From contig CAYUCL010000004.1 of the NCBI GenBank assembly GCA_964443325.1, positions 5,885-69,884 of the forward strand: DNA of 64,000 nt. Reading direction: 5' to 3'. The stretch is from an uncultured Dehalococcoidales bacterium (GTDB taxonomy: Bacteria > Chloroflexota > Dehalococcoidia > E44-bin15). The notes under the pieces are model-generated. The model had not been told where the DNA came from and did not search any database. It saw only the letters and a list, made by a program, of their open reading frames with translations. The translations under genes and the position numbers were made by a program. Positions 20,300-36,430 of this stretch are shown here, one piece after another; the stretch's first letter is position 1; every line of letters begins with the position of its first letter.

Positions 20300-21556
20300 T
20301 TACTCCCTCTCCACTATGGTCGCGATGCCACATCCCGCACCACCGCATAACGTCTGCATACCCCATCTGAGGTTGTTGCGCACCATCCAGTGAACCATCT
20401 CGGTGAAGTAGAGGACACCAGAACAGCCTATTGGATGCCCGATGGCTATCGCTCCACCCGTGGGGTTAATTCGCGGGTCGTCATAAGCTATGCCGAACTC
20501 GTCACAGAAGGCCATGACTGGTGATGCAAAGGCTTCGTTAGGCTCCCAAACTTCCATATCATCCATGGTGCGCCCGGCACGAGCGAGTGCCTTCTTCATC
20601 GCTGGTATTGGGGCAAGAAGCTGTATCTTGGGCTCGCCACCAGCCACCGCCATCGATCTTATGGTCGCCATGGGCTCCAATCCCAATTCCTTCGCCTTCT
20701 CCTTTGACATCAGCATGCAGGCTGCCGCACAATCGACAATGCCCGACGAACTCCCGGCGGTCACCTTCCCTCCCTCTTCCGCTTTCTTGAACCTCGGTTC
20801 AAGCTTCTGCATCCTCTCCCACGCAGCATCAGGGTTATCCAGTGCCTCAGCCCTTGGGGTCTCATCCTTGTCGACGATCACCGGTGGCTGGCCATCAACC
20901 TCCACCTTGGCGGGGATGACCCTCTTCCTGTACCACTCCTCATCTCTGATGGCCTTAACCGCCTTCTGATGGCTCCACAGCCCTAACCTGTCCATGTCCT
21001 CGCGCGAATAGTCATATCTCTGGGCAATCGCCTCAGCGGAGAGACCCATGTTCAGAATCTCAGCACCCCCTCTCCTCACAACATCGGGGTGGAAGGACAC
21101 AGGCAATCCCGCTTTCATCGCCGCCTGAACCTGGGAGCCCATGGCGTAGTGGCTCATGTTCTCCACCCCGCAAGCAATGAAGATGTCGCCGCAGCCGGTC
21201 ATGATCGCCTGTGCCTGAGAGTTGACCGCCTGGAGGCCCCCATTGCAGTAGCGGTCAATTGTCCAACCGGGAACCTCGTCTGGGAGCCCCGATGCCAGAA
21301 CGGCAAACCTACCGATATTTCCCCCTTGCTCGCCGATTTGCATCGAGCACCCACAGGCTACATCCTCGATCCAAAGAGGATCGAATTCGGGGCACTTCTC
21401 CTTCACACGCGCCATCAATCCCTGTATCGCCTGGGCGATGAGGACTTGCGCCGAGACGTTCATGTAGGCCCCGGCCTTCTCCATCCCCTTCCATCCCGAC
21501 TTCCCGCTTGGAAGCCGGACCGCATCTACGACCACAGCTTCAGTTAGTTCTTTCAA
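20300..21556 (-). CDS. Thiolase-like protein (SCP-x/lipid-transfer-type thiolase)
   Basis: Thiolase fold with an active-site Cys region and a C-terminal GHPIGCSG motif. Confidence 0.7.
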   Translation of the reverse strand: MKELTEAVVVDAVRLPSGKSGWKGMEKAGAYMNVSAQVLIAQAIQGLMARVKEKCPEFDPLWIEDVACGCSMQIGEQGGNIGRFAVLASGLPDEVPGWTIDRYCNGGLQAVNSQAQAIMTGCGDIFIACGVENMSHYAMGSQVQAAMKAGLPVSFHPDVVRRGGAEILNMGLSAEAIAQRYDYSREDMDRLGLWSHQKAVKAIRDEEWYRKRVIPAKVEVDGQPPVIVDKDETPRAEALDNPDAAWERMQKLEPRFKKAEEGGKVTAGSSSGIVDCAAACMLMSKEKAKELGLEPMATIRSMAVAGGEPKIQLLAPIPAMKKALARAGRTMDDMEVWEPNEAFASPVMAFCDEFGIAYDDPRINPTGGAIAIGHPIGCSGVLYFTEMVHWMVRNNLRWGMQTLCGGAGCGIATIVERE

Positions 21557-21748
21557 CTTTTCCCCTCCTTAATATTATCTCTAAGAAGCCTCCATATTAT
21601 CTGCTTAGCTTCCATTACCACCCTCGCTGCTTCCCGTCCAAATCGACCCGTATCGTCTTAGCGTACACTATGCAGTAGTATACCATCTTATGCTGGCAAA
21701 GACAGCTTAAAAGAGCGCAGGCCTCATTTTTTTCAGACGTTGCCAAGA

Positions 21749-21837
21749 CACTATTTTTATTGATATTGACAGTAGATAGGAACGAGCCTAGACTTATCAT
21801 TGGATATGGATATACGAAATCTGAATAGTGCCCTGGA
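21749..21837 (+). repeat. Direct repeat, left copy (~90 bp); includes a truncated duplicate of the 5' end of the 24027 gene
   Basis: CACTATTTT...ACAGTAGATAG-GAACGAGCCTAGACTTATCATTGGATATGGATATACGAAATCTGAATAGTGCCCTGGAA matches 23970–24059 with a few substitutions and one indel. It encodes MDIRNLNSALEGQ* from an ATG at 21805. Confidence 0.85.
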
Positions 21838-21948
21838 AGGACAATGATAGATAAGGAAAAAGGAAATGAGTTTTAAAAATGAACCACAGCAAAAGATTGA
21901 TATTGAATAAGTAGAAGAGGTTCATACCAAACCAGTTTTATACAATTT

Positions 21949-22323
21949 GAATAGTCCCCAATAATTGACATAAAAATTACCAATTGCGATGGAAAAGGTC
22001 AGACATCCGGTCAATCAAAAAGATGGGAGGCTACAGTCTGGATTTGCTTAAAGATCAGGGAAGATAGAGTTTGGAAAGCAACTTGGTTTTCAACAGGGCT
22101 TGGAGGACTTATTACGGCATATGGAAGTGCCCTGACTGAAATGGTGAAAGGGAAAACAATAAGCGAAGCTTTGCGGATTCAAGCCGAGGATATATCTACA
22201 AGTTTGGATTTACATGAAACTGGATTTGGAGCTTGGTTTACAAGAACATTAGTAGAGGCAATCAACAATTACAATATTTATAAGTCAGCTCCATGGAAGA
22301 GAATGTATGAAAAGAAATATTAG
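21949..22323 (+). pseudogene. IscU/NifU-like scaffold remnant lacking the conserved cysteines and an in-frame start
   Basis: Translation (…TWFSTGLGGLITAYGSALTEMVKGKTISEALRIQAEDISTSLDLHETGFGAWFTRTLVEAINNY) aligns with IscU (…[62 protein letters not shown]). The first ATG in this frame is at 22141, and the Cys ligands are replaced. Confidence 0.35.
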
Positions 22324-22348
22324 AAGAATGGGGAAAGGAGGTGAAAGT

Positions 22349-22744
22349 ATGGAATTGTTAATAGCTTTCAGTACCGATGATGGTGAGAATTTGAACAATG
22401 GTCATGCAGGTGACGCCAAGTATTTCTATCTCTATAACTTTTTCGATAATAAGGAAGAGTTTGTTGAACAAAGAATGAATATCGAATTGAGGAGAGATCA
22501 ATCTCTAAAACCTGGAAGTCCAGAAATGGCCAAGGCTAGAGCTGCTGTTTTTAAGAACTTGGATGCATTGGTTGGTAAGGAATTCGGCCCAGGTCTTCCC
22601 AATTTGTTGAAGCAATTTGTCTGTGTATTGATAAGGGTAGACACTATCAGTAAGGCAATTGAAGTCGTGCGTAACAATCTGGACAGAATAAGGGAAGAGA
22701 AGGAGAAAAAAGAAGGTAGAAAACATATTGTGCTGAGACCATAG
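22349..22744 (+). CDS. NifX/NifB-like dinitrogenase FeMo-cofactor-binding domain protein with KE-rich tail
   Basis: MELLIAFSTDDGENLNNGHAGDAKYFYLY follows the MKIAxxSxDGxxxxxHFGxAxxFxIY pattern. A strong AAGGAGGTG RBS lies 7 nt upstream of the ATG at 22349 (the tracked ORF starts 42 nt earlier). Confidence 0.5.
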   Translation: MELLIAFSTDDGENLNNGHAGDAKYFYLYNFFDNKEEFVEQRMNIELRRDQSLKPGSPEMAKARAAVFKNLDALVGKEFGPGLPNLLKQFVCVLIRVDTISKAIEVVRNNLDRIREEKEKKEGRKHIVLRP

Positions 22745-22857
22745 CGGATAGTAGAGACCAATTGCAAAGATGGAGGTTGGAAGTTATTCTAAACAAGTAA
22801 AATAGCAGCAGAATAAGGGCGTTTTTTTAAACTTTAACAATGGAAGGTAAATAGAAA

Positions 22858-23247
22858 ATGGTAGCTAGAACAGACGTTAAAGAAAAGATAAAGAAAATTT
22901 ATGAGGTTTTGCCCAAATTGGATGACCAGCGATGTGGTTATAAAACTTGTGGGAAATTTGCTAAGGCAGTAGCTGAAGGAAAGGCGCCATGTTATGGATG
23001 TGTTAGTGGTGGGCCGGAGGTAGCTGCTAAAGTGTGTGAAATTATGGGAGCCAGAGTCCCTGAACAAGCAACTCGTCAGTCTGGCATTAATGCTGGATTT
23101 TACCAGCCCGCATTCGGTGGAGGTGGAAGGGTAGGAAGGGGCATGGGGCAAGGTTTTGGTAAAGGTCGGGGCATTGGACCAGGCCGAGGTATGGGTCGAG
23201 GTGGTGGCATGGGCCGAGGTTTTGGCAGGGGGCGACCTAGAAGATAA
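22858..23247 (+). CDS. RnfB-N-terminal-like Fe–S cluster domain fused to a Gly/Arg-rich (GRG-repeat) tail
   Basis: LPKLDDQRCGYKTCGKFAKAVAEGKAPCYGCVSGGPEVAAKVCEIMG resembles the RnfB N-terminal FeS domain (LPxTxCGxCGYPGCRxYAEAIxxGxA..CP). The C-terminal ~45 aa are GRGMGQGFGKGRGIGPGRGMGRGGGMGRGFGRGRPRR. Confidence 0.5.
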   Translation: MVARTDVKEKIKKIYEVLPKLDDQRCGYKTCGKFAKAVAEGKAPCYGCVSGGPEVAAKVCEIMGARVPEQATRQSGINAGFYQPAFGGGGRVGRGMGQGFGKGRGIGPGRGMGRGGGMGRGFGRGRPRR

Positions 23248-23303
23248 AGTAGAAAAAGGCAATAGTAGATTCCCTAATCATCGGTGGATTTAAGGAAGGA
23301 TAA

Positions 23304-23873
23304 ATGTTCCCGATAATAAAAAATCAGAGAAGGACTAAAGTTTTTTATGCTTTAACCTCGATAATCTACGACTCAATAAATCCTCACATCTACACAAAAG
23401 AAATGAAAGATATTCTAATTAAAGAGATCGAGGGAGATAAGATATTGGATGTTGGAGTTGGAACTGGTTATACCACTAGGGAATCTGAAATAGCAATTGG
23501 GATAGATATATCCAAAAGGATGCTGTTTCGAGCTAATGATTATAGAGGCTCTTTAATTTTGGCTGATGCTCTCTATGCGCCCTTTATACCAGGAACTTTC
23601 GATACCATTATCTCTGCTGGCTCTCTTTATTATTTCCCTGAGCCCTTGGAAGGATTAAGAATATTTCATTCCTTGCTAAAGGCAAACGGGGTAGTTCTGT
23701 ACCTCGGCCCAAATATAAAATTTTTAAAGTTGTTGGTTCAGGTCTACAACCAAGCAGAGCTAGAAGAATTGTTTGGACATAGTAGATTTAGAATTGAGAA
23801 AATAATGGAGGTAGGACGGGGTAACATTGCCTATTTTGCTAAGGCGAGGAAGCAAAGAGAGCATACCGGGTAG
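23304..23873 (+). CDS. Class I SAM-dependent methyltransferase
   Basis: ILDVGVGTGYTT glycine-rich SAM-binding motif. Confidence 0.65.
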   Translation: MFPIIKNQRRTKVFYALTSIIYDSINPHIYTKEMKDILIKEIEGDKILDVGVGTGYTTRESEIAIGIDISKRMLFRANDYRGSLILADALYAPFIPGTFDTIISAGSLYYFPEPLEGLRIFHSLLKANGVVLYLGPNIKFLKLLVQVYNQAELEELFGHSRFRIEKIMEVGRGNIAYFAKARKQREHTG

Positions 23874-23969
23874 TGCCAGATAGTCAGAATAGGGATTAGA
23901 ATATTTAGAGAAAGTAGAGAGAAAATGTTGTGTTTCAATGGATGTCATTCAGTCAGCTTGCTACCCAGT

Positions 23970-24059
23970 CACTATTTTGGGGACATTTACAGTAGATAGA
24001 GTACGAGCCTAGACTTATCGTTAAATATGGATACACGAAATCTGAATAGTGCCCTGGAA
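23970..24059 (+). repeat. Direct repeat, right copy (~90 bp), spanning the promoter and 5' end of the 24027 gene
   Basis: See the left copy at 21749–21837. Confidence 0.85.
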
Positions 24060-24653
24060 ACCTTATTAAAAGAAAACGCCGTCAACCAGTTGGCAAAGAT
24101 CTTAGCCTACGCCTCAAAAAAAGGCAGGATCTCCTACGAAGAGGCAGAACACGTACTTGATGATGACCCCGAGGATGCTTTGATTCTAGCTGAGCAGCAG
24201 AGGTTACTGATTCCGCTGAGATCAGTCAAAGATACGCTGGAATGGGATCATTCAGTTTTACTTCTCAAACCAGGTGAAATTTACAAGATGCCCAACGTGG
24301 TTAGGTATTTAGTAGAACAAGCTAGTAGAACCGGTCAATGGGATCCAGAATATGCTGTGGCCCAGATCTTCAGGGAGATGGGAGAGCCAAGCTGGAATAT
24401 AATGCCAGCATTGGTTAAGAAACTGGGAGAGGAAGCTAGCTATAACAAGCTCAATGCTGTTCAGATAAAGCAAGTATGTAGCCAGCTTGGGCTGGGAGGT
24501 AGGGTGGATTCACTAATCGCTGGACTCAAGGGAGCTGGAGCGATGAGCCCTAAGTTGAGTTCGATTGTTGAAGTGATCAGGGCAGGATCACCTATATATG
24601 AACTCAATCCCTCTCTTTTCATGTCGACATCTGGCAACGCAACCTCCACTTGA
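24027..24653 (+). CDS. Hypothetical protein immediately upstream of cas10 (possible HTH N-terminus)
   Basis: 208-aa ORF with no recognisable family. Its first 11 codons are duplicated at 21805. Confidence 0.4.
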   Translation: MDTRNLNSALETLLKENAVNQLAKILAYASKKGRISYEEAEHVLDDDPEDALILAEQQRLLIPLRSVKDTLEWDHSVLLLKPGEIYKMPNVVRYLVEQASRTGQWDPEYAVAQIFREMGEPSWNIMPALVKKLGEEASYNKLNAVQIKQVCSQLGLGGRVDSLIAGLKGAGAMSPKLSSIVEVIRAGSPIYELNPSLFMSTSGNATST

Positions 24654-24780
24654 TACTATTTCACTGCCTGTTAGAGCACGTCATTGCCATCCTTCAATAC
24701 CGGCCTATTTGACATCTTCCTAAGTGCCTGAGATAATTTGGTAACCCCATGGCCCTGGTTGGGCTCATGGCGGAGATGAT

Positions 24781-27201
24781 ATGTCCCAAGAAGAGAGCCT
24801 CATTCTTGCTGCTTTGCTCCACGATGTAGGTAAGTTCTGGCAACGAACTTCTCACCCGCTCGAACGGAAGGACCAAGCCCATGCCCTCCTCTCCCATCAG
24901 TTTATTCTGGACCACTTTGGCCAGAAATGGAGCCAAAGCGCCAGCCTGGCATCTGCACATCACCAACCTGACGATTACCTGGGCAAGTTGATTCAGCTTG
25001 CAGACCATCTATCGTCCCAAGAAAGGGATCACCAAGAGGAGGGCAACCCCGCTGTCAAACAGCTCCTGTCGGTCTTCTCGCAGGTTGGCTCCGGTAGCAG
25101 CCCTTATTATCTGCCTCTAAAGCCTCTGGACATTCACAGGGATCCTATCTTTCCCAAGCAAGAGACAGACAAGGAACCAGAGAAGTCCTACACTGCATTG
25201 TGGGATAACTTTGTCCAAGAAACGGCAACGGTCACGGGACTGTATGGGACAGATTTCCCAGCACTCATCAATACGTTTTATCACCTTCTGTGCAAGTTCA
25301 CCTGGTGCATCCCCAGCGCCTACAATGCGGACATCCCCGATGTCTCGCTGTTTGACCATCTCCGCACCACATGCGCCATCGCCCTCAGCCTATATCGCTC
25401 CGGCATCTCTGAGGCTGATGTGGATTTACTGCTCGCAGGCAGCTCTGATGCAGCGAAAGAGAAACAGTACCTGTCCCTGATAGGCGGCGATATTTGCGGC
25501 GTGCAGCGTTTTCTCTACACACAAACTTCCAGGGGGGTAGCCAAAGGGATTCGCGGGCGCTCGTTCTATCTGGAGCTCCTGACTGAGTTAGCAGCCCTTT
25601 GGCTGTCACGCCAGTTAGGGCTCTACACCATCAACCTGCTCTATGTCGGCGGGGGGCACTTTTATATTCTAGCCCACCACATAGACGGTCAGACGCTATC
25701 ATCTCTACGTAGGGATTTTTCACAGGCGCTATTAGAGCATCACCACGGTGCGCTGCACCTGGCTCTTGCAACTCAAGAACTGTGCCCGCAGGACTTCGGC
25801 CATTTCTCCAAAGCATTGGCTGGTGTACACAAACAGCTTGGCTGGGCAAAGCGGCGGCCATTTGGCGACCTGGCACCAGGGAAATTCTACGAAGAGATTC
25901 TCAAACCAAAAGGTGCCAGAGAACCTGCAGACGTATGCGCGGTGTGCGGGGCTGAGGGTGCGCACCATAAGCTCGGAGAGGGAGAGGAGAGAGAATGTGA
26001 CCTGTGCCATTCTCTCAAGCACCTGGGAGAGCAACTGGCGGATGCCAACTACCTCCTTATCGCCCCCAGACAAGAGGGACGGCAAGATGTTCAGGTTCAA
26101 GGATGGCAAAAGCTCTTTTTCTTTGGCCTAGGATTTGTGGTGAAGCTCTTGGATGAACCCCATCACTCGGATTTGAACAGGCTTGGCCCAGGGGCGACAT
26201 TGCTGCGACTGAACTCCACCGACTTTCTGAGCACCGAGGTAGTCAACGCTATCAAGACCGTGAAGAATCCACCAGCGCTTGGGTTTCGTTTTCTAGCCCA
26301 GGCGTCACCACGAAAGAAGGTGGAGCCTGCAGAGATTGCGGATTTTGAGACCGTGGCCCAGGCTTCTGAAGGAGTGCCTTTATTGGGTGTCTTGCGCATG
26401 GACGTGGACGACGTAGGATGGCTTTTCCAGCATGGGCTTGGCGAAGATGCCAGCATATCCAGAGTCTGCTCAATGAGTTTCCTTCTCCGTCTTTTTTTCG
26501 AGGGCTGGCTCAATAGCCTGTGTACCAGGTGGAACCCCCATGACGGGAAAGACAAGGTCTACGCCATCTATTCCGGGGGTGATGACCTTCTTATCACCAG
26601 CAGTTGGAGTGAGATAGCCGAACTTGCCTGGAATATACACCGCGACTTTTCAGAGTTTACTTGCTATAACCCCCAGGTGCACATCTCCGGCGGTACGACA
26701 GTCGATGACCCCCACCTCCCTCTGTATCAACTAATTAAAGCAGCTACAGAATCTTTGGAGAGCGGCGCCAAAAGAATGCCGGGGAAGAACGCCTTCACCT
26801 TCCTCGGCCAAACGCTCAACTGGTCACAGTTTCAGAAGGCGGGCGAGTGGCGCGATATCTTGAAGAGTATAATAGCCATCAATGGACGGATTGAAAAGGA
26901 TAAGGCGCCTCGAACCGTCCTTAATCTTTTGATGGAGCTTCACCAAAGCTACCTCGAAGGACAGAGTATGAATGACAGCAGGCGGCTGTTCCATGGGCCA
27001 ACGATTCACTACGGCCCCTGGATGTGGCACGCAGCCTATCATCTTTCCCGTATGATGGAAGGGGTAGAAGGCCCGGCCCAGGCCCAACTAGCAGAGATAA
27101 GGGAAGCTCTAATGCAAGCCGAGCGCCTGTCAGTTGAGCTTCCCCAGCTAGCACTGGCGGCACGGTGGGTGGAACTGCTCACTCGCACGGAGGGACTATG
27201 A
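24781..27201 (+). CDS. cas10: Type III CRISPR Cas10/Csm1 (HD nuclease + Palm/cyclase)
   Basis: N-terminal HD motif (ALLHDVGKF). A treble-clef zinc finger (CAVCG...CDLCHS). GGDD cyclase motif (IYSGGDDLLI). 806 aa. Confidence 0.9.
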   Translation: MSQEESLILAALLHDVGKFWQRTSHPLERKDQAHALLSHQFILDHFGQKWSQSASLASAHHQPDDYLGKLIQLADHLSSQERDHQEEGNPAVKQLLSVFSQVGSGSSPYYLPLKPLDIHRDPIFPKQETDKEPEKSYTALWDNFVQETATVTGLYGTDFPALINTFYHLLCKFTWCIPSAYNADIPDVSLFDHLRTTCAIALSLYRSGISEADVDLLLAGSSDAAKEKQYLSLIGGDICGVQRFLYTQTSRGVAKGIRGRSFYLELLTELAALWLSRQLGLYTINLLYVGGGHFYILAHHIDGQTLSSLRRDFSQALLEHHHGALHLALATQELCPQDFGHFSKALAGVHKQLGWAKRRPFGDLAPGKFYEEILKPKGAREPADVCAVCGAEGAHHKLGEGEERECDLCHSLKHLGEQLADANYLLIAPRQEGRQDVQVQGWQKLFFFGLGFVVKLLDEPHHSDLNRLGPGATLLRLNSTDFLSTEVVNAIKTVKNPPALGFRFLAQASPRKKVEPAEIADFETVAQASEGVPLLGVLRMDVDDVGWLFQHGLGEDASISRVCSMSFLLRLFFEGWLNSLCTRWNPHDGKDKVYAIYSGGDDLLITSSWSEIAELAWNIHRDFSEFTCYNPQVHISGGTTVDDPHLPLYQLIKAATESLESGAKRMPGKNAFTFLGQTLNWSQFQKAGEWRDILKSIIAINGRIEKDKAPRTVLNLLMELHQSYLEGQSMNDSRRLFHGPTIHYGPWMWHAAYHLSRMMEGVEGPAQAQLAEIREALMQAERLSVELPQLALAARWVELLTRTEGL

Positions 27202-27698
27202 CGCAGGTGGAAGGGTCTTCAGCGGAGTCTCAGCCACAAAAGGAACCGGCGTCTTCAGAGGAACTGCGCAAGATCATTGTCGACGGAGATGCCGAGGTAC
27301 TGGTAAACTGCGCCGAGCGTATAGGGAGGAAGCTGAAAGAAATGAACCTGGCGACGCATCAAATACGAGGCATCCTCGGTGCTATTCATATGATCGAGAC
27401 GACCTGGTCCTCTAATCCGGCTGAAGCACAGCGGGAGCTCCGTCTGCTGAAGCCCAAGCTGGCATATCAGTCAAAGAAAGTGAAGGAAACACTGGATGGG
27501 CAGGATGTATTTCCCGTGGAGGAATTGCGAGAGGTCATTTGCGGCGCTATTGACATCGTGCTCAAGCAAACAGACGAGCCAGAGGCAGGCGGAAAGGCAA
27601 ATGCGGGGGGGACGGAGCGCCACAACTCCTTCAGGCGCTTGGTGAGTTTCTTTGAGGCCATTGTCGCATATCACCGCTACCACGGCGGCAGGGACTAG
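27165..27698 (+). CDS. csm2: Csm2 (Cas11 small subunit); true start probably at 27195
   Basis: Small alpha-helical protein containing the LLKPKLAYQSKK motif typical of Csm2. Positioned between cas10 and csm3. Confidence 0.75.
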   Translation: MGGTAHSHGGTMTQVEGSSAESQPQKEPASSEELRKIIVDGDAEVLVNCAERIGRKLKEMNLATHQIRGILGAIHMIETTWSSNPAEAQRELRLLKPKLAYQSKKVKETLDGQDVFPVEELREVICGAIDIVLKQTDEPEAGGKANAGGTERHNSFRRLVSFFEAIVAYHRYHGGRD

Positions 27699-27707
27699 GG
27701 GAGTGTA

Positions 27708-28523
27708 ATGGCAGAAACCGAACGTAAAATCCAGTTGCATGGAAGGATATTCATCACCGGCAGCATAGAAATCGTGACTGGCCTGCACATCAGAGCGGCA
27801 AGGAGAGCTTTAGCCATTGGCGGTTTGGACAATCCTGTAGTGCGAAACCCCATTACCGGCCGCCCTTATATCCCCGGCTCCTCGTTAAAGGGAAAACTGC
27901 GCTCCCTGCTGGAAAAGCACTACAACAAGTCTCAACAATGGGCAATGGGTGGAGTTCGTATCCATGCCTGTTACAAGTTTGACGAAAAGGGAAACAGAAT
28001 ACCCGACGAAGAAGCCTACTCGAATTGTCAAATCTGTCCCATCTTTGGCATACCTGCAGGGTTCGCCGTGCTACCAACCCGCCTCATAGTGCGGGATGTG
28101 CCTCTTGACGAGAACAGCGCACAAAGGCTAGCCAGGACCAGGACGGAACTCCCCTTCACCGAGGTCAAATGGGAAACATCCCTTGACCGGGTTACCGCGG
28201 CGGCTACTCCCCGCCAGGTCGAGCGGGTGCCTGCCGGTGCCATCTTCGCCCCTTTGGAACTGGTCTACAATGTGTACGAGGATGCCGATGTGGACCGTTT
28301 CATGCACCTGCTGGACGCCATGCGGTTTCTGGAGGATGACTATCTCGGTGGCCTGGGAACCCGCGGCAGTGGCAAGATCGCTTTCCAGGAGCTTTCACTG
28401 ACCGCCCGCACCCGCGAGCGGTATATGGAGGAGAAGACTTTCGAGACAGGGTTATCCCTGAGAGATCTCATGGCCAAGGAAGAGGAGACGATGAACTGGC
28501 TACACCAGACGTTCTCCCGGTAG
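27708..28523 (+). CDS. csm3: Csm3 (Cas7 backbone RAMP)
   Basis: GGLDNPVVRNPITGRPYIPGSSLKGKLRSLLE is near-canonical for Csm3, including the G-rich loop. Confidence 0.9.
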   Translation: MAETERKIQLHGRIFITGSIEIVTGLHIRAARRALAIGGLDNPVVRNPITGRPYIPGSSLKGKLRSLLEKHYNKSQQWAMGGVRIHACYKFDEKGNRIPDEEAYSNCQICPIFGIPAGFAVLPTRLIVRDVPLDENSAQRLARTRTELPFTEVKWETSLDRVTAAATPRQVERVPAGAIFAPLELVYNVYEDADVDRFMHLLDAMRFLEDDYLGGLGTRGSGKIAFQELSLTARTRERYMEEKTFETGLSLRDLMAKEEETMNWLHQTFSR

Positions 28524-29576
28524 ATGTTGATCATGGCAGAGACATGGCTGTACAAGCTTAAGCCCCGCTCTTCCTTTCACTTCGGTGAGGGGGGCCTGGG
28601 CATTGAGGCTACGGACGAAGTCTTCCATTCCGATTCCTTTTTTGGTGCTCTGGCCATAGGTGTGAGAATGTGGGAGGGCGAGAATGCGCTGGTTGAGCTC
28701 CTCTCCCAGTTTCAGGAGCAGCCACCTTTCAGAATCACTTCCCTGTTCCCCTATGCTGGTGAGGTGCTTCTTTTCCCCAATCCCATGGTCAATCTCCCCC
28801 TTGAGGGAGAAGCCGAGGAAAAGCAAGGTATTCGGCTTAAATACGTACGCTTCATCTCCCAGGGTATCTTAGAACCAGTGCTTCGTAGCGAGCCTCTGGA
28901 TGGGCATCTAATCAGGGATAACCTTTGTCAGGGTGGAAGGGTGTGGCTTACGCAGCAGGAGCGCACCGCCTTGCCGCTAGCAGGAAATGAACCTATCCTG
29001 TGGCGACGCCACATCGTGACCAAGGTTGCCGTGGATCGGCTGGGTATGGCTTCACATAGCTATTACGCCGCACAGGTTGGTTTCTCCCCTGGCTGTGGTC
29101 TCTATTTCCTCCTCGAAGTAGAAGACCCTGCTTCAAAAAGGCTTGTGGAAAGCGCACTATATTATTTATCTGAGGCTGGACTTGGTGGCGAAAGGAGCGC
29201 TGGTCATGGCCAGTTTTCGTTCGAGTCCGCCAGCCCATTTGCACCATTCTGGCCTACGGATGGGGACTCGTTCATCACCCTCTCGCTTTATCACCCCACA
29301 CTGCCTGAGCTGGAGGCCGGTGTCCTAGACGGACAGGCCGCCTACGAACTTACTCAGAGGGGCGGGTGGGTGAACTCTCCAGAGCGAGCGGGGCAGAGGC
29401 GCAAGTCCGCCTCCTTCATCGGTGAAGGGTCTGTGCTATGCTCCCTGGGCAAGCCAAGCTATGGGGAACTGGTAGATGTTACACCGGAACTAGAGCCCGA
29501 GAAGCACCCTGTATATCGCTACGGGTTTGCCTTCCCCATTGGAGTTCATAGAAGGGTGGAAGTCGATGAGCCGTGA
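28524..29576 (+). CDS. csm4: Csm4 (Cas5-group RAMP)
   Basis: N-terminal YKLKPRSSFHFGEGG...SDSFFGAL is typical of Csm4. Its position in the operon also fits. Confidence 0.8.
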   Translation: MLIMAETWLYKLKPRSSFHFGEGGLGIEATDEVFHSDSFFGALAIGVRMWEGENALVELLSQFQEQPPFRITSLFPYAGEVLLFPNPMVNLPLEGEAEEKQGIRLKYVRFISQGILEPVLRSEPLDGHLIRDNLCQGGRVWLTQQERTALPLAGNEPILWRRHIVTKVAVDRLGMASHSYYAAQVGFSPGCGLYFLLEVEDPASKRLVESALYYLSEAGLGGERSAGHGQFSFESASPFAPFWPTDGDSFITLSLYHPTLPELEAGVLDGQAAYELTQRGGWVNSPERAGQRRKSASFIGEGSVLCSLGKPSYGELVDVTPELEPEKHPVYRYGFAFPIGVHRRVEVDEP

Positions 29577-30669
29577 ACTGCACAGCACCTATCGGCTGAC
29601 CCTGGAGACCCTCTCACCTATTCACATCGGCTCAGGGAAAGGTGAGTTGCTCCTGGACTACGATTTCATTGTGGAGGGGAACCGTGCACTGGTGGTGAAC
29701 CTGGAACGGCTGCTGGGAGAGATAGACGACAAGAGGCTCAAAGCGGCAGGAGCGGATCCAAAGCTGAGTCTTCTGCTGGCCCCAGAAGAGATAGAGCGAG
29801 TCAAAGCCTATGAGATAGATATCGCCGCAGGGCACCCCGACCGGATTCGGGAGCATGTGAAGGATGCCTTCGACAAGCTTTACATTCCCGGAAGCTCGAT
29901 AAAGGGGGCGCTGCGCACCGCCCTGGCCTGGTCCGCCCACCACGGCGCACTAACGCTGGGCGGGCTGGGTGAGCGCAATGACCCCACAAAGGCCGATGAC
30001 TCGGTTGAGGCGGGAATATTCGACTACGATCCGAGAGACACCCATCGCGAACTGCTACGCGCTATGCGGTTAACCGACGCATACCCGCAGGACGGTGTCA
30101 TGCCCAGAGCATTGCCGGTTACCGTCTTTTCGCTTTACGGTCAGCCACCCTCTCTCAAACCAAGGGGAGAGCCAACTTTTTTAGAGGTGATCCCCAAAGG
30201 CACCACCATTGAGTCTACCCTGACTCTGGATAGATATGTTCTTCGGCCTGAACGCAGGGTACGGCGAATGTATCACTTTCGCAGGCGACACTTTTTCGAC
30301 CAGTTGGTGGAACGCTGCCGTGCATTCTCCGCAGAGATAGTTAAGCTCGAGCTTGACTTCTATAGCGATTGCGGCATCTGGAAGCTGCAGGGGTTCTACG
30401 AAACGTTGGCGAGGAGACAGGCAGCACTGAAAGATAGCGAATTCCTCCTGCCCATCGGTTGGGGCACCGGTTGGTTGGGCAAGACCCTGGGGACCAAGTT
30501 GACCCCAGGTGAGGTGAGCACGGTTGCCGAGACCTATCACCTGGAGAAGTGGCACGGCTCGCTATTCCCCAAAGTCTTCCCCAAGACCAGGCGGCTCGTT
30601 GGCGATGGGCAAGCTAGAGAACCTCTCGGCTGGGTGAGAATTAGCCTGCAGGGCCCCACCGGCCGTTGA
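29566..30669 (+). CDS. csm5: Csm5 (Cas7-group RAMP)
   Basis: YRLTLETLSPIHIGSG and LYIPGSSIKGALRTAL RAMP motifs. The likely ATG at 29566 overlaps the end of csm4. Confidence 0.8.
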   Translation: MSRELHSTYRLTLETLSPIHIGSGKGELLLDYDFIVEGNRALVVNLERLLGEIDDKRLKAAGADPKLSLLLAPEEIERVKAYEIDIAAGHPDRIREHVKDAFDKLYIPGSSIKGALRTALAWSAHHGALTLGGLGERNDPTKADDSVEAGIFDYDPRDTHRELLRAMRLTDAYPQDGVMPRALPVTVFSLYGQPPSLKPRGEPTFLEVIPKGTTIESTLTLDRYVLRPERRVRRMYHFRRRHFFDQLVERCRAFSAEIVKLELDFYSDCGIWKLQGFYETLARRQAALKDSEFLLPIGWGTGWLGKTLGTKLTPGEVSTVAETYHLEKWHGSLFPKVFPKTRRLVGDGQAREPLGWVRISLQGPTGR

Positions 30670-30780
30670 GCCTGCCTGGAAATAGCCATAAACGAAAGCT
30701 GGCTGCCATAAAGAACGCTAATAGTCACAAGGAGCGCCTGGTTCACTAATCCTCGACACTTTCTGGAGGTAACAAAACAA

Positions 30781-31623
30781 ATGCTGCTGAGCGCCATCAT
30801 AGCGCTACAAGCCCGCAAGGAAGCATTATTGCCCCCCTACCTGGGCAAGGCAGCACATGCGCTATTCCTTCGACTTGTGGCCACTACTGACCCCAACATG
30901 GGAGCAAAGCTACACGATGATAGTGAGGCCAAGCCCTTCACTGTGTCGGGCCTTGTGGGCCTGCCCAGGAGGAGCGCAACAATGCATATCAATGCTGGCC
31001 AGGTTTGCTTATTGCGCTTCACTAGCTATGAGGACGACCTCTCAAACCTGCTGGCGGAAAAGGTGTTGCCATCGTTGCCTCAGGAGTTTGAACTTGAGAA
31101 CGCCCTCTTTTCAGTCGAGGATGTCTTCATGCAAAGCGGCGCTCATCCCTTGAGCAGACAAACGTCATATCAGGAGTTAGCTCAAGGGCATCTGCTCGAT
31201 GCCAGAAGCGCCCCCACAAGAGTCAAACTCTTTTTCATGTCGCCTACTACATTCAGGTCGGGGGGGAAGAATATACCGTTGCCGCTTCCAGGATTGGTGT
31301 TTGGCAGCCTCGCCGACCGATGGAATGCCGTGTCGCCAATCACCATCTCCAGAGAGGTAAGACGTTACGCTGAGGAATTTGTGGCAATTTCCCAATGCCA
31401 GCTCAAAACACGTACGGTGGAAATTGCTGGAGGCAAACAGGTAGGTTTTATCGGTTCGTGCTCGTATGTCGCGCTGAGGCATGACGCATACTGGCGTAGG
31501 GTTATGAACCTGCTGGCGGAGTTCGCCTTTTACAGCGGCGTGGGCTATAAGACAACCATGGGGTTTGGCCAGACGTTCACCCACCGTTTCGCTGCAAAAC
31601 GCTCCACCTCGCAATCAAGCTGA
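30781..31623 (+). CDS. cas6: Cas6 crRNA endoribonuclease
   Basis: The C-terminal glycine-rich loop GVGYKTTMGFGQ matches the Cas6 GhGxxxxxGhG signature. 280 aa. Confidence 0.8.
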   Translation: MLLSAIIALQARKEALLPPYLGKAAHALFLRLVATTDPNMGAKLHDDSEAKPFTVSGLVGLPRRSATMHINAGQVCLLRFTSYEDDLSNLLAEKVLPSLPQEFELENALFSVEDVFMQSGAHPLSRQTSYQELAQGHLLDARSAPTRVKLFFMSPTTFRSGGKNIPLPLPGLVFGSLADRWNAVSPITISREVRRYAEEFVAISQCQLKTRTVEIAGGKQVGFIGSCSYVALRHDAYWRRVMNLLAEFAFYSGVGYKTTMGFGQTFTHRFAAKRSTSQSS

Positions 31624-32168: not shown

Positions 32169-32243
32169 GGGCTCGTAGCTCAGCGGCAGAGCGATCGGCT
32201 CATAACCGATTGGTCGTAGGTTCGAATCCTGCCGAGCCCACCA
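32169..32243 (+). tRNA. tRNA-Met (CAT), elongator-type (could alternatively be tRNA-Ile2)
   Basis: Acceptor GGGCTCG/CGAGCCC, anticodon loop CTCATAA, T-loop GGTTCGAATCC, CCA encoded. It lacks the initiator hallmarks. Confidence 0.8.
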
Positions 32244-32252
32244 CGAAATGGT

Positions 32253-32290
32253 CCCCCCTGACTTACAAGGGGGATTTTTTGTTTTTGTTG
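32253..32290 (+). terminator. Rho-independent terminator after tRNA-Met
   Basis: A CCCCCT...AGGGGG hairpin followed by TTTTTTGTTTTTG. Confidence 0.75.
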
Positions 32291-32572
32291 ACAACCATAG
32301 TTGCTTCATGATATATTCCTGAACGACTGATAAGCTCTCTTGTAGTTTTCCGTGAAGAGCTTCTTTACTCGTGGTCAGGTCATTTCGGCCAGACCCCATT
32401 ATTTTGGCGTGAAAGTGCGCCTCGGGGTCTGGCCTGTTCTTATCTACGATTGTGCTTGATTGCGCTTTATTTTTGCAGTAGCAATAGATTGAACAATATG
32501 GTAGTTTATGGTATAGTTTGGTATGAACATATTATATGACTATCGATTCATACAATGCAATAAGGGGGAGCG

Positions 32573-32827
32573 ATGACCAGAACTGTTAAAGTAACTCTGA
32601 GCTTACCACATGGATTACTTCGCTTTGCTGATGGATTGGCTGCCAGGGAAAAGGTTAGTCGCAGCAAATTCATAGCTGGTGTTCTACAGAAGCTGGCTGA
32701 CAATGAAGAGGAACGTCTAATGGCAGAAGGCTATCTGGCTATGGCAAACGAAAACCAGGAATTTGCCGAGACTGTTGTGCCATTGGTTGATGAAGTATTA
32801 TCGGATTGGAAGCGAAATGGCCATTAG
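32573..32827 (+). CDS. Ribbon-helix-helix (CopG/MazE-like) antitoxin
   Basis: 84-aa N-terminal RHH (TVKVTLSLPHGLLRFADGLAAREKVSRSKFI). The gene overlaps the mazF start. Confidence 0.65.
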   Translation: MTRTVKVTLSLPHGLLRFADGLAAREKVSRSKFIAGVLQKLADNEEERLMAEGYLAMANENQEFAETVVPLVDEVLSDWKRNGH

Positions 32828-33158
32828 CCGTGGTGAGATATACTGGGTAAACTGGAATCCGGGAAGGGGTAGAGAGCAGGTCGGCATACGACCTGCTCTC
32901 GTTATTCAGAACGATACAGGCAATCAATACAGTCCGACGACCATCGTTGCTGCTATTACTACAGCCCCAGTCAAGGCATATCCATTTATCGTGCCCATTA
33001 CAGCCTCTGAAAGCGGATTGCCGCAGGACAGCAGTGTGAATCTCTCTACCATATTGACTGTCTCGAGAGATAGACTGAAAGATAAGTGTAGTGAGCTCAG
33101 TGCCCAAAAGATGGCCGAAGTGAATGATGCGATCAACAAGAGCCTGGCACTGGATTGA
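32820..33158 (+). CDS. mazF: MazF/PemK-family endoribonuclease toxin
   Basis: RGEIYWVNWNPGRGREQVGIRPALVIQND...TIVAAITT fits the PemK/MazF fold. The ATG at 32820 overlaps the antitoxin by 8 nt; the tracked ORF begins 57 nt earlier. Confidence 0.8.
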   Translation, partial: AISRGEIYWVNWNPGRGREQVGIRPALVIQNDTGNQYSPTTIVAAITTAPVKAYPFIVPITASESGLPQDSSVNLSTILTVSRDRLKDKCSELSAQKMAEVNDAINKSLALD

Positions 33159-33250
33159 AACAAACGTAGTGTCGAGGTTTCGCTCGTTCGTGGTAGCAAT
33201 ATAGATATAAAGCCTGTCTGACTCTGCACACAAGGAGATAACAGCCCCTT

Positions 33251-33385
33251 GATCCGTGAGTCCGGATTCAAAAGAGTCGTATGTTAGTTGGTTTTTTCTG
33301 AGGCGTGAAGGTCCTTCTGTGAAGGATTCCTTCACCAAAGCTGAGGGAGAGGACTCCCTCAGTCCTCAAGAAGAATCCACGGATT
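33251..33385 (+). repeat. Dispersed ~130-bp structured repeat element, copy A (MITE-like or small RNA)
   Basis: About 90% identical to 41830–41960. Internal hairpins GTGAAGG..CCTTCAC and GAGGGAG..CTCCCTC, with short inverted termini (GATCCGTG … CACGGATT). Confidence 0.7.
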
Positions 33386-33473
33386 AAGGAGCCAATCAAG
33401 TATCGATAAGAGCGTTGTGTATGCTATAATACTGGTGTATCACGATGGAAGGGGGGACTATGGGTATTGAATC

Positions 33474-33800
33474 CTATAGTTGCCCCTTCTGCTTTTCAAA
33501 CTTCCATCGATCATAGTATATGAACATGATATTACATCTAGCAGCCTTCCTTAACAAATGAGAACAACTATCCTGTCGGCACGCTATAACCAATTTGAAT
33601 ATATCCACACTGCGCAAATAATCCACTAAACATGCTATATCTCCATCGCCTGTTATGACTACAGCCTTATGGTTATTGTTAATAATTATCATTGCGTGTA
33701 GAACTATCTCGGCATCACAATTCCCCTTGATTTTTCCGTCAAGCAATGGGAGCACAGTCTTGTAGACTAGAGTGTACTCATAATCTTTTATGTCACTCAA
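33474..33800 (-). CDS. NYN-domain (LabA-like) protein, probably a truncated fragment
   Basis: GNCDAEIVLHAMII...AVVITGDGDIACLVDYL matches the C-terminal half of NYN/LabA domains. It lies in an AT-rich region, and 108 aa is short for the family. Confidence 0.5.
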   Translation of the reverse strand: MSDIKDYEYTLVYKTVLPLLDGKIKGNCDAEIVLHAMIIINNNHKAVVITGDGDIACLVDYLRSVDIFKLVIACRQDSCSHLLRKAARCNIMFIYYDRWKFEKQKGQL

Positions 33801-33900
33801 ATAATATTGTCAACATTTCAAATTGATCCACTACCGGATTTTTGTTGTTGTTATTGACAGTCCCCCTACCCTAAATTAGAATGAGGTAAGACGGTGAAAG

Positions 33901-34602
33901 GTGAGCAAAGGAAGACAGCTATACGAGCTTCAAGAGGTTGACCTGGAGATAGAGGCGAAGCAGGAAGCTCTGTCTAACGTGCAGAGCCGATTAGGCCAGA
34001 GCCAGGCTCTTGATGAGGCTCGCGCTAATCTTGCTACACAGAAGAACTGCGTTTATGAGCTAAATGCAAGCCAGCGAGCTGGGGAGTGGGAGGTGGAGGA
34101 CCTGCGAACGAAGGTAGCCGATATAGAGCAGAAGCTTTATGGTGGCGCGCTGAAAAACCCCAAAGAGCTGGCAAGTCTTCAGGAGCAGGCGGAACATCTT
34201 AAAAAAAGACGTAGGGAAGAGGAAGATAAAGTACTTGACATAATGACTGAATTAGAGGCGGCACAGGCGAAATTAGCGATGATAAGCCAGGAGGTAGAAA
34301 GTTTTGAGAAAAGCTGGAAGGAGGAGCAGACCGAGCTTTCCAGGGAGCAGGATAGGTTGAGCACTAATTTAGCTAACCTTGAGCAGAAGCGAAAAGACCT
34401 CGGCTCAAGGATCGATGCAGCGAGCCTGAGGCTTTATGAAGAACTAAGGACAAAGAAACAGGGCAGGGCAGTGGCCAAGGTTGAACAGGGCATGTGTCAG
34501 GGATGCAGAATTGTCCTCCCGGTGAGAGAGTTACAGCGAGCAAGAGCAAGTCAAGAATTGGTGCAGTGTGGTAGTTGTGAGAGGATTCTTTTCGTGAGCT
34601 AG
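33901..34602 (+). CDS. COG1579-type coiled-coil protein with C-terminal C4 zinc ribbon
   Basis: Long coiled-coil region followed by CQGCRIVLP...CGSCERIL. Confidence 0.7.
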   Translation: MSKGRQLYELQEVDLEIEAKQEALSNVQSRLGQSQALDEARANLATQKNCVYELNASQRAGEWEVEDLRTKVADIEQKLYGGALKNPKELASLQEQAEHLKKRRREEEDKVLDIMTELEAAQAKLAMISQEVESFEKSWKEEQTELSREQDRLSTNLANLEQKRKDLGSRIDAASLRLYEELRTKKQGRAVAKVEQGMCQGCRIVLPVRELQRARASQELVQCGSCERILFVS

Positions 34603-34605
34603 GCG

Positions 34606-36018
34606 ATGAGAACGATTGGCTATTTTCGAGTAACCGAAGAGACTGGAAGGTCCCCCTCACTGGTGGAGCAGCAGGAGGGTTTTGCCCGCTTTTGCCAGGA
34701 ACGGGGTTACCAGCCGGTAATGACATTTGTTGATACGGGCTCAACAGGGAAAGTTGGCCGAACTCAGTATCAGCGCATGCTCAGCTACATCCGGAGGGAT
34801 GGAACGGACACTGTAGTTGTGGTGAAAAGTCTTAGCCACCTTCACCCCGACGTGCAGGAATTGATGTATCGCCTTATTGAAATTGATGCCCTCGGGGCAA
34901 AGGTTCTCTCAATCGATGAAGAGCTTGCCAGCCCCTTGGAAACGGTTATCCAGATTTGGTCTACCCGGCGCCAGAGTGGAATAAGAGGGGATGCTGTGAG
35001 GGAGGCGATGAAGCTCAGGGCAGTCAGAGGAAAAGGATTGGGCAAGCCACCCTATGGCTATAAGCTGGGTGCCGACAAGAGGCTGGAGATCGTCCCTGAG
35101 GAGGCAGCCAATGTAGAACTCATCTATCAGCTTTATGTTCAAAAAAACATGGGCGTGCGCCTCATCGCTCGATACCTGAATGAGCAGGGCATCACCACCA
35201 GAAGAGGTGGCCTGTGGAGCATCGTTGGCATCCGAGATATCCTGCGCAATCGGGCATATCTGGGGACATCCTCCCGTTTCGGCTTCAGGGTTCCTGACAG
35301 CCACCGACCGATAATCAATCATGAAACCTTCAACAAAGTGCAGGAACGACTTACCGCCAAGACAAAGCCAAGGGGTCGCGTCCAAAGGTCGCCCTTCCCT
35401 CTATCAGGTCTGGCTTACTGTGGATACTGTGGCAACAGGATGACCGGCGTGAACCGCAGTCAAACCTGGACAACGCTCAAGAAGGGAGGGAAGAGGAAGG
35501 GGGAGTATCGCTACTACCAGTGCCAGTCGAGAACTAATCAAAGCGTTTGCCAATACCATACAAGGAGAGCTGAAGATTTAGAGGGCTTTGTGCTCGGTAC
35601 ACTACGGAGTTATAACAACCTTGAGGCTCTGGTACAATTGACGAAGGTGCGTGATTTCAGTGACGAACCGTCAGAGCACACGCGGCTAGAGAGAAAGCTG
35701 AAGACTCTGGATCGAAAATTCCGAGATCATCTCAACCAGGCGACCGATGGTGCCATCCCCTTGGAAGAATTCCGTGTTGTGAGTGGGGATTTGATTTGGG
35801 AGAGGCGGCTTTTGGAGGAAAGGATCGCCCTTCTTAAAGCTGAAGCAAAGCAGGAGATAACCTCCGAGCACCGGAAGGATTATATGTTGGAGAAGCTAGA
35901 AGAGCTTCAAGAGCGATGGGACACCATGACCTCACCGGCAAGAAAAGCGTTGCTTCAGCATATAATCGAACGCATTGTTGTCTACGACGACCATGTGGAA
36001 ACTATCCTCAGGCTGTGA
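34606..36018 (+). CDS. Large serine recombinase homolog with substituted catalytic residues (probable pseudo-recombinase)
   Basis: Resolvase-like N-domain (GYFRVTEETG) followed by a recombinase domain (GKPPYGYKL) and a zinc ribbon (CGYCGNRM...CQSR). The nucleophile Ser is replaced by Thr, and the DRLGR motif is replaced by SLSHLHP. Confidence 0.6.
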   Translation: MRTIGYFRVTEETGRSPSLVEQQEGFARFCQERGYQPVMTFVDTGSTGKVGRTQYQRMLSYIRRDGTDTVVVVKSLSHLHPDVQELMYRLIEIDALGAKVLSIDEELASPLETVIQIWSTRRQSGIRGDAVREAMKLRAVRGKGLGKPPYGYKLGADKRLEIVPEEAANVELIYQLYVQKNMGVRLIARYLNEQGITTRRGGLWSIVGIRDILRNRAYLGTSSRFGFRVPDSHRPIINHETFNKVQERLTAKTKPRGRVQRSPFPLSGLAYCGYCGNRMTGVNRSQTWTTLKKGGKRKGEYRYYQCQSRTNQSVCQYHTRRAEDLEGFVLGTLRSYNNLEALVQLTKVRDFSDEPSEHTRLERKLKTLDRKFRDHLNQATDGAIPLEEFRVVSGDLIWERRLLEERIALLKAEAKQEITSEHRKDYMLEKLEELQERWDTMTSPARKALLQHIIERIVVYDDHVETILRL

Positions 36019-36025
36019 TTAGCCT

Positions 36026-36430
36026 ATGGCAAAACGCATAACCATCTATACCGACGGCGCTGCTCAGCCCAACCCAGGGCCTGCCGGCGTAGGCATCGTC
36101 ATCCTGAATGAATCAGGAGCGGTTATATTCGAGGCCTCGCATAGTATTGGCTACGCCACAAACAACCAGGCAGAATATAAAGCTGTCATCAAAGGTCTCG
36201 AGGAAGCAGCAAGGCTACGCGCAGAGCATATTGAGGTCAGGTCTGACTCAGAGCTTCTGGTGAAGCAGATCAAAGGCGAATACCGAGTAAAGAATCCGGG
36301 GCTGAAGCCCCTATTTCAGCAAATCCACCAGCTAATTATAGCATTTCCGTCTTTTTCTATCGTCCACATCCCCAGGGAGCAGAACAGAGCAGCGGACGCA
36401 TTAAGCCGCAAGGCATTGAGACGCAGTTAA
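36026..36430 (+). CDS. rnhA: Ribonuclease HI
   Basis: TDGAAQPNPGPAG, NNQAEYKAV and SDSELLV motifs, with catalytic D/E/D residues present. 134 aa. Confidence 0.85.
   Translation: MAKRITIYTDGAAQPNPGPAGVGIVILNESGAVIFEASHSIGYATNNQAEYKAVIKGLEEAARLRAEHIEVRSDSELLVKQIKGEYRVKNPGLKPLFQQIHQLIIAFPSFSIVHIPREQNRAADALSRKALRRS

Follow-up and report, generated by a model that had tools for sequence, protein, structure and literature searches.

An AF_2141-family gene beside a type III-A csm operon of an uncultured Dehalococcoidales bacterium appears to be a synteny-kept neighbour of the operon whose usual partners lie in a redox and methyltransferase gene island

We analysed 64,000 nucleotides of the genome of an uncultured Dehalococcoidales bacterium (assembly GCA_964443325.1, contig CAYUCL010000004.1, positions 5,885 to 69,884 of the forward strand; hereafter the window), in which a gene for a protein of 208 amino acids (aa) lies directly upstream of a type III-A effector operon of the CRISPR type, headed by cas10/csm1. 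A sequence-only reading had called this gene uncharacterised, which our results bear out, and had proposed a regulator or an ancillary component of the Csm system. The explanation that we favour on balance is instead that this is an ordinary AF_2141-family (PF27374) gene with native partners in an island of redox, iron-sulfur (Fe-S), corrinoid and methyltransferase genes, that its product is probably a DNA-binding regulator acting through the second of two winged helices (WH1 and WH2), and that it stands next to csm only by lineage-specific synteny. The features that carry this argument are:

24027..24653, + strand: AF_2141-family gene (PF27374), 208 aa; acidic WH1 covering residues ~19-88 and basic WH2 covering ~121-200; predicted structure with mean predicted local distance difference test score (pLDDT) 87.9 and predicted template-modelling score (pTM) 0.85; ratio of nonsynonymous to synonymous substitution rates (dN/dS) 0.22-0.32
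20300..21556, - strand: thiolase gene, conserved left anchor of a syntenic block
24781..31623, + strand: type III-A effector operon cas10/csm1-csm2-csm3-csm4-csm5-cas6, complete; a neighbour of the AF_2141 gene, not the same functional unit
24781-27201, + strand: cas10/csm1 (TIGR02578, E = 3.7e-183)
27165-27698, + strand: csm2
27708-28523, + strand: csm3
28524-29576, + strand: csm4
29527-30669, + strand: csm5
30781-31623, + strand: cas6

The ATG-initiated open reading frame (ORF) is present in the window at these coordinates, and 127 bp separate its stop codon from the ATG of cas10/csm1 on the same strand, just as the sequence-only reading had described. Its dN/dS values of 0.32, 0.32 and 0.22 against the relatives at loci L012, L152 and L013, respectively, show that the gene is genuine and subject to purifying selection. 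A homologue search over 5.8 billion proteins returned 156 homologues, including one (P0001) that matches the entire query (100% coverage) at 100% identity and has the precomputed domain PF27374.1, named AF_2141; the same domain is precomputed over the full length of 120 of 120 homologues among the matches listed. The 208-aa protein is thus a full-length member of PF27374, an assignment that comes from precomputed annotation, the model not being part of our local Pfam copy. Our local Pfam-A copy, NCBIfam, PADLOC and PHROGs gave no credible match (the sole NCBIfam and PHROGs lines, at E = 0.02-0.03, were dismissed as noise), and a sequence-profile search of the PDB returned nothing below E = 1. 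The earlier statement that the gene has no recognisable family therefore holds for the local libraries but not overall, since PF27374 is precomputed on the identical protein. Our literature search on AF_2141 and PF27374 turned up only unrelated papers.

The family is small, comprising 243 clusters at E <= 1e-3 when 1.84 billion representative proteins were searched with a profile, nearly all of them standalone proteins of ~200 aa with few fused doubles; the rare fusions to other domains (an MGS/AICARFT fragment, a HAD hydrolase) are uninformative. It ranges over Dehalococcoidia/Chloroflexota, Desulfobacterota, Bipolaricaulota and Promethearchaeota (Asgard archaea), and no homologues were found in phage and plasmid collections. 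In an alignment of 24 sequences at 45-94% identity, W73, E84, Y86, P89, W105, L163-I164-A165, K168, G171, S174, P189, Y191, E192, N194 and P195 are invariant, including a C-terminal motif with the consensus PIYELNPS, and the window protein retains all of these residues. Tandem adjacent pairs of AF_2141 genes occur at 21 of 78 loci (e.g., L041, L055, L062, L065, L067-L076 and L079), the second, downstream copies branch off as a deep clade of their own, and some representatives are fused doubles of ~410 aa (P0121, P0123, P0126); both arrangements suggest that a heterodimeric form of the family exists.

The usual surroundings of the family were compiled from 80 species-level loci of a genome collection and 5 loci from long metagenome contigs, and loci with at least 3 kb of usable flank (72 at species level) were treated as informative. 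The ORFs of all loci were clustered and cluster representatives annotated; because genes were called as longest ORFs and clusters built by single linkage, the following neighbour counts are lower bounds:

DUF1638 at 18 of the 72 loci, thioredoxin at 13, metallo-beta-lactamase fold at 12
CbiA/ParA-like nucleoside triphosphatase (NTPase) at 10, RACo/RamA-like activator at 10, PF04060 Fe-S protein at 9
pyridine-nucleotide disulfide oxidoreductase, two kinds, at 9 each; Fur at 8
DUF1684 at 7, ArsP_2 permease at 6, NifX-like at 5, NifU_N at 5
further neighbours: several ArsM/UbiE/CpaM-like S-adenosylmethionine (SAM) methyltransferase clusters, Mrp/NBP35 and nitroreductase

This neighbourhood is recurrent and mostly co-directional. 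One or more of the island families occur within 5 kb at 42 of the 72 AF_2141 loci against 3 of 34 thiolase-centred control loci (a small set from similar organisms), and two or more at 36 against 2, although the enrichment is partly circular and the contrast somewhat inflated because the families were chosen from the same loci. The gene order PF04060 Fe-S protein, NifX-like, DUF1638, methyltransferase, AF_2141 recurs at L016, L019 and L083. DUF1638 and RamA-like proteins have been tied genetically to the reactivation of B12 (PMC5764234). The co-directional island recurs in anaerobes (L001-L005, L016-L083, L161-L162), is apparently unnamed and also contains thioredoxin/DUF8180, TrxB-like and CoA-disulfide-reductase-like flavoproteins as well as Mrp and CbiA-type NTPases; a literature search on its combined components found no description.

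The association with csm looks very different. The sequence-only reading had proposed to examine co-occurrence with csm operons, and tblastn with the window Cas proteins located csm genes at just one of the 72 informative species-level loci, L014. All homologues of at least 55% identity with readable context belong to a single block consisting of a gene for an EEP-family membrane protein, the thiolase gene (- strand), AF_2141 and cas10 (L012, L014, L155, L156, L157, L096 and L152; at L013, the thiolase gene is present and the contig ends at the AF_2141 gene). In a neighbour-joining tree, the csm-adjacent copies make up one clade that is nested among island-associated Dehalococcoidia sequences. 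Because these copies form one clade in one block, we conclude that the association with csm arose once and was then inherited.

A thiolase-anchored metagenome scan also yielded three relatives of the block (L093, L094 and L095) in which thiolase and csm adjoin without the AF_2141 gene. Two of them (L093 and L094) have Cas10 proteins 88-89% identical to that of the window and a thiolase-cas10 spacer of 437 bp, in which a gene of ~69 aa with a helix-turn-helix of the XRE/HTH_3 type occupies the AF_2141 slot, divergent from cas10 (781-1047, + strand, at L093 and the equivalent position at L094). The third, L095, has a Cas10 of 56% identity and a spacer of 330 bp with neither an AF_2141 nor an XRE gene. 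The thiolase-cas10 junction is a hot spot of gene turnover.

The fold of the protein was approached, as the sequence-only reading had suggested, by structure prediction and Foldseek. The AlphaFold2 model, built with the 24-sequence alignment as input, is confident and shows an N-terminal helix, WH1, two linker helices and WH2, with both winged helices modelled as helix-strand-helix-helix-wing units; the wing of WH1 is poorly ordered, and that of WH2 has a short inserted helix. The N-terminal helix-turn-helix that had been suspected from sequence folds as a winged helix in this model, and the C-terminal part adds a second one. WH2 is basic (net charge +3, isoelectric point 9.3), WH1 and the linker are acidic. 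Foldseek was run against one fold library, the PDB, where the leading matches are the tandem winged-helix RNA polymerase III (Pol III) subunit C82/RPC62 and the ArsR/MarR regulators SqrR, SrnR, PagR and MarR.

Both the AF_2141 gene and cas10 are preceded by promoter-like sites of their own, and a further copy lies upstream:

23986..24015, + strand: AF_2141 promoter-like site, TTTACA-18-TAGACT, with the ATG 11 nt past the -10 hexamer
21766..21794, + strand: promoter-like site of the upstream repeat copy, TTGACA-17-TAGACT (10/12 match), placed such that it may drive the insert
24709..24737, + strand: promoter-like site of cas10, TTGACA-17-TGnGATAAT (11/12 match)

The pattern TTGACA-N17/18-(GCC)TAGACT-N11-ATGGAT is kept in the GC-rich relatives L156, L157 and L096, and this conserved spacing between site and ATG implies a nearly leaderless AF_2141 transcript. 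The cas10 promoter-like site and Shine-Dalgarno region are kept in L012, L014, L093, L094 and L095, i.e., with or without AF_2141, while the sequence around the site has diverged or been replaced in those relatives. No conserved palindrome was found in the AF_2141 promoter across relatives except in L157. An operator common to the promoters of AF_2141 and cas10 throughout the clade was considered and dropped, as only inconsistent 7-8-mers emerged.

In the window strain, the gene has also been the target of an insertion:

21741..21838, + strand: direct-repeat copy 1, duplicated promoter and codons 1-11; its left side is collinear with the thiolase-proximal spacer of empty sites
21806..21847, + strand: stub ORF of 13 codons (MDIRNLNSALEGQ, then stop) left by the duplication
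21839..23961, + strand: AT-rich mosaic cassette of ~2.1 kb, 39.6% GC (guanine plus cytosine) against 52.9% in the flank; missing from eight related loci
21915..22316, + strand: degenerate NifU_N-like remnant at the left edge of the cassette, with an in-frame stop and loss of the cluster-ligand cysteines
22307..22744, + strand: NifX-like gene (Pfam Nitro_FeMo-Co), in the cassette
22858..23247, + strand: small PF04060 "FeS" protein, RnfB N-terminus-like with a Gly/Arg-rich repeat tail, in the cassette
23304..23873, + strand: class I SAM methyltransferase, in the cassette
23962..24059, + strand: direct-repeat copy 2, the AF_2141 gene's own promoter region and codons 1-11, with weak homology back to 23944

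As the sequence-only reading had noticed, the promoter and first codons of the gene are repeated around this cassette. The two copies of the direct repeat (21741-21838 and 23962-24059) share 84.8% identity over 98 bp, rising to 93% in a core of 57 bp, and weaker similarity reaches back to 21722/23944. The repeat stops exactly after codon 11 of the AF_2141 gene (..CTGGAA), so that the upstream copy leaves the stub ORF of 13 codons. Both copies are present base for base on an independent metagenome contig (L007), which excludes that the duplication is an assembly artefact. The gap between the thiolase and AF_2141 genes measures 2470 bp in the window and on the same-strain contigs L006 and L007, as opposed to 198-270 bp at eight related loci with empty sites (L012, L013, L014, L096, L152, L155, L156 and L157). 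With eight empty sites against one occupied lineage, parsimony places the insertion in the lineage of the window. The empty site of L012 corresponds collinearly to the upstream repeat copy on its left and to the gene copy on its right. These empty sites and the two repeat copies uphold the earlier claim that the insertion of the cassette duplicated the 5' end of the gene, and recombination on ~100 bp of AF_2141 promoter and 5' homology is, judging from the sequence, the likely explanation for the structure of the cassette. Placing the crossover by single-nucleotide polymorphisms near ACAGTAGATAG, and with it a choice between Campbell-type insertion and loop-out deletion, was dropped; L013 shows variants that are shared among lineages.

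The genes of the cassette are of the kind that usually accompany the family. Homologues of its PF04060 and NifX-like proteins occur at 20 and 8 AF_2141 loci, respectively, and in one AF_2141 island (L161, L162), the gene that comes right behind a PF04060 gene encodes a relative of its methyltransferase with 67% identity. The NifU_N-like remnant matches the NifU_N neighbour of another AF_2141 locus (tblastn E = 2e-9, 27% identical), and its 3' part was called as an ORF of 60 aa (22141-22323). The Gly/Arg-rich tail of the PF04060 protein (GRGMGRGGG-like) is encoded by imperfect 18-bp repeats at 23133-23235, and a DnaJ-like neighbour at L062 ends in a similar tail. GC content is 46.1% in the AF_2141 gene, 52.9% in the thiolase-side flank, 54.9% in csm and 39.6% in the cassette; the intermediate value of the gene is consistent with an older import of the gene as well.

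We thus picture the following course of events. The AF_2141 protein would regulate its island by binding DNA through the basic, ArsR/MarR-like WH2 of the model, with the acidic WH1 possibly serving to sense a signal or to form oligomers. A single copy may then, in one Dehalococcoidales lineage, have come between the thiolase gene and the type III-A csm operon and have been inherited vertically ever since. There, the gene would form a transcription unit separate from csm; csm has retained a promoter-like site of its own and is still present in relatives without the AF_2141 gene. In the window strain, a 2.1-kb cassette of the family's usual neighbours would then have integrated at the promoter and 5' end of the gene, either by a single crossover with a circular intermediate or by homology-facilitated illegitimate recombination. 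This integration would have duplicated the promoter and the first 11 codons; by sequence, the upstream promoter copy probably drives the cassette, and the downstream copy would still drive the intact gene.

Several observations weigh against this explanation. None of the listed island families was found at 30 of the 72 loci, and the island is heterogeneous; its enrichment carries the circularity mentioned above, and the gene calling behind the counts was a crude longest-ORF heuristic. DNA binding by the protein is probable to judge from its model, but the whole protein is acidic (isoelectric point 5.3, with a family median of 5.5-6.3), and no fold match reached E <= 1e-3. No donor of the cassette was found. 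The relative of its methyltransferase with 86% identity (L158) stands in an unrelated context beside a KaiC-like ATPase; the cassette appears as a mosaic because L158 shares only 23240-23925 of the window. On the side of csm, the adjacency to AF_2141 persists down to ~50% Cas10 identity and could reflect selection rather than inertia, an XRE-family gene fills the same slot in two relatives, and no terminator-like site was found between the AF_2141 gene and cas10, making read-through into csm possible.

Part of this evidence could also be read as pointing to a protein that does not bind DNA at all, namely a winged-helix adaptor or ligand-binding subunit that would contact enzymes of the island (DUF1638, SAM methyltransferase, RACo-type activator) by analogy to the non-DNA-binding ScpB/MukE or Pol III C82. 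Besides the acidity of the whole protein, WH1 has acidic residues where a recognition helix would start, and the invariant W73, E84, Y86, P89 and W105 together with the wing motif P-x-Y-E-x-N-P resemble a site for interaction or ligand binding more than an operator reader. The top fold matches include Pol III C82, cullin WH-B and MukE, the paralogues that occur in tandem or as fused doubles hint at obligate hetero-oligomers, and AF_2141 often comes right after a same-strand methyltransferase or DUF1638 gene. However, WH2 is basic with an ArsR-like helix-turn-helix pattern, there is no invariant partner among the neighbours, and Fur, the only other obvious regulator of the island, is found in a minority of islands. 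We consider such an adaptor unlikely, though it is the chief alternative as to what the protein does. Co-option of AF_2141 as a regulator of csm in the Dehalococcoidales lineage, with the position before cas10 as a "regulator slot" for either AF_2141 or an XRE helix-turn-helix protein, strikes us as improbable. It would account for the place of the gene just ahead of cas10, in the same orientation, which at least 8 sequence-distinct relatives share across Cas10 identities of 50-100%, for the winged-helix fold with a basic WH2, for the lack of a terminator-like site before cas10 and for the divergent 69-aa HTH_3 gene in the same position at L093 and L094. Yet a single syntenic block and a single clade amount to one independent event, L095 keeps the cas10 promoter-like site in its 330-bp spacer without either regulator gene, and no motif was common to the two promoters throughout the clade. 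Furthermore, all family-invariant residues are kept with no sign of a change of function, and the insertion that the gene attracted carries island-type genes and not cas genes. We rate as quite improbable the bolder proposal that AF_2141 represents a new class of two-winged-helix sensors or regulators of the unnamed anaerobe island, one Dehalococcoidales copy of which was rewired to couple a redox or cofactor signal to type III-A csm in a slot interchangeable with an XRE regulator.

Least plausible by far is an ancillary effector or signalling part of the Csm system, such as a cyclic-oligoadenylate sensor or ring nuclease, for which only the proximity to a Cas10 with intact GGDD motif speaks. 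A type III accessory gene might be expected to recur in independent contexts, to encode a sensing or effector domain (CARF, SAVED, WYL, HEPN, nuclease or protease) and to be kept wherever csm is kept in close relatives. The AF_2141 gene adjoins csm at 1 of 72 loci, in one clade and one block; Pfam, NCBIfam and PADLOC searches and the model revealed no such domain, nor does the model contain a Rossmann-like one; and L093, L094 and L095 keep csm without the gene, two of them with a Cas10 of 88-89% identity. Nearly all members of the family lie away from CRISPR loci, no homologues were found in phage or plasmid collections, and cas10 has a promoter-like site of its own; the Csm regulator or component proposed by the sequence-only reading is not supported. 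That reading had named homologues confined to non-CRISPR contexts with a known unrelated function as what would speak against it; the homologues are indeed overwhelmingly non-CRISPR, but no known unrelated function is attached to them.

Beyond the AF_2141 gene, the window Cas10 keeps an N-terminal HD motif and its GGDD motif, and no CRISPR array was detected in the 64-kb window (no direct repeats <=120 bp apart, no TRF array). The csm4 homologue of L012 (6649-7655), called with a length of 297 aa, is spread over two frames in the alignment (6649-7494 and 7488-7655), reflecting either a frameshift or an assembly error. Directly downstream of cas6, the window contains a tRNA-Met gene (32169-32243) and a HicB-like/MazF (PemK) pair (32573-33158), followed up to 36427 by a NYN-domain gene, a gene for a CT398-like zinc-ribbon protein, a large serine recombinase gene (34606-36018) and an RNase H/RVT_3 gene; the region 32169-36427 has the look of a hot spot for integration, or of what is left of a mobile element, at the border of the csm island.

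For CRISPR biology, these results are mainly a caution that a hypothetical gene which seems conserved ahead of cas10 can be a passenger that synteny has preserved in a single lineage, and lists of type III accessory genes should therefore leave such a gene out. PF27374, a catalogued family without known function, gains a predicted fold of two winged helices, a taxonomic range and a reproducible neighbourhood, made up of genes for thioredoxin, Fe-S proteins, corrinoid reactivation and methyltransferases, through which its function can be tested. In addition, the insertion provides a clean natural example of how ~100 bp of promoter and 5' homology may capture a foreign cassette and duplicate a promoter.

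Compared with known systems, the window protein shows no difference from PF27374 itself, a family named after AF_2141 of Archaeoglobus fulgidus with function unassigned; the only atypical feature of this copy is its genomic position between the thiolase gene and csm. The most frequent specific neighbours of the family, the DUF1638 and RamA-like (RACo) corrinoid-reactivation genes (18 and 10 of 72 loci), are neighbours and not homologues of AF_2141, and both are missing from the window. In the model, WH2 appears to share the helix-turn-helix and beta-wing topology of the ArsR/SmtB and MarR regulators (SqrR 6o8k, SrnR 7p6f, PagR 2zkz, MarR 3vod), including the pattern L-x-x-L-K-x-x-G-h-h-S followed by a wing with Y-x-L, with Foldseek probabilities of 0.6-0.9 and local TM-scores (TMt) of up to 0.6 at E-values >0.1. 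However, AF_2141 differs from these regulators in having two winged helices per chain and a helical insertion in the wing, in lacking a metal-binding Cys cluster (there is a single nearly invariant Cys, C151), and in giving no Pfam match (HTH_5, HTH_20, MarR etc.) at E <= 0.1. Over the whole chain, Foldseek ranks C82/RPC62 of RNA polymerase III first (E = 5.9e-3, probability 0.97); this subunit likewise has several winged-helix domains in series (tandem extended winged-helix), but it is eukaryotic and 2-3x longer with TM-scores of 0.15-0.32 and 14% identity, an architectural resemblance and not homology. As far as the model goes, AF_2141 resembles the ArsR/MarR and tandem winged-helix proteins in fold only. 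Finally, Csa3-type regulators, which combine a CARF domain with a winged helix-turn-helix (PMC8699464, PMC8844856, PMC4012209), are similarly winged-helix proteins encoded beside a CRISPR-Cas operon, with Cas10 presumably making cyclic oligoadenylates. In contrast to them, AF_2141 has no CARF match and no beta-alpha-beta Rossmann unit in its model, and its association with CRISPR is limited to one syntenic lineage.

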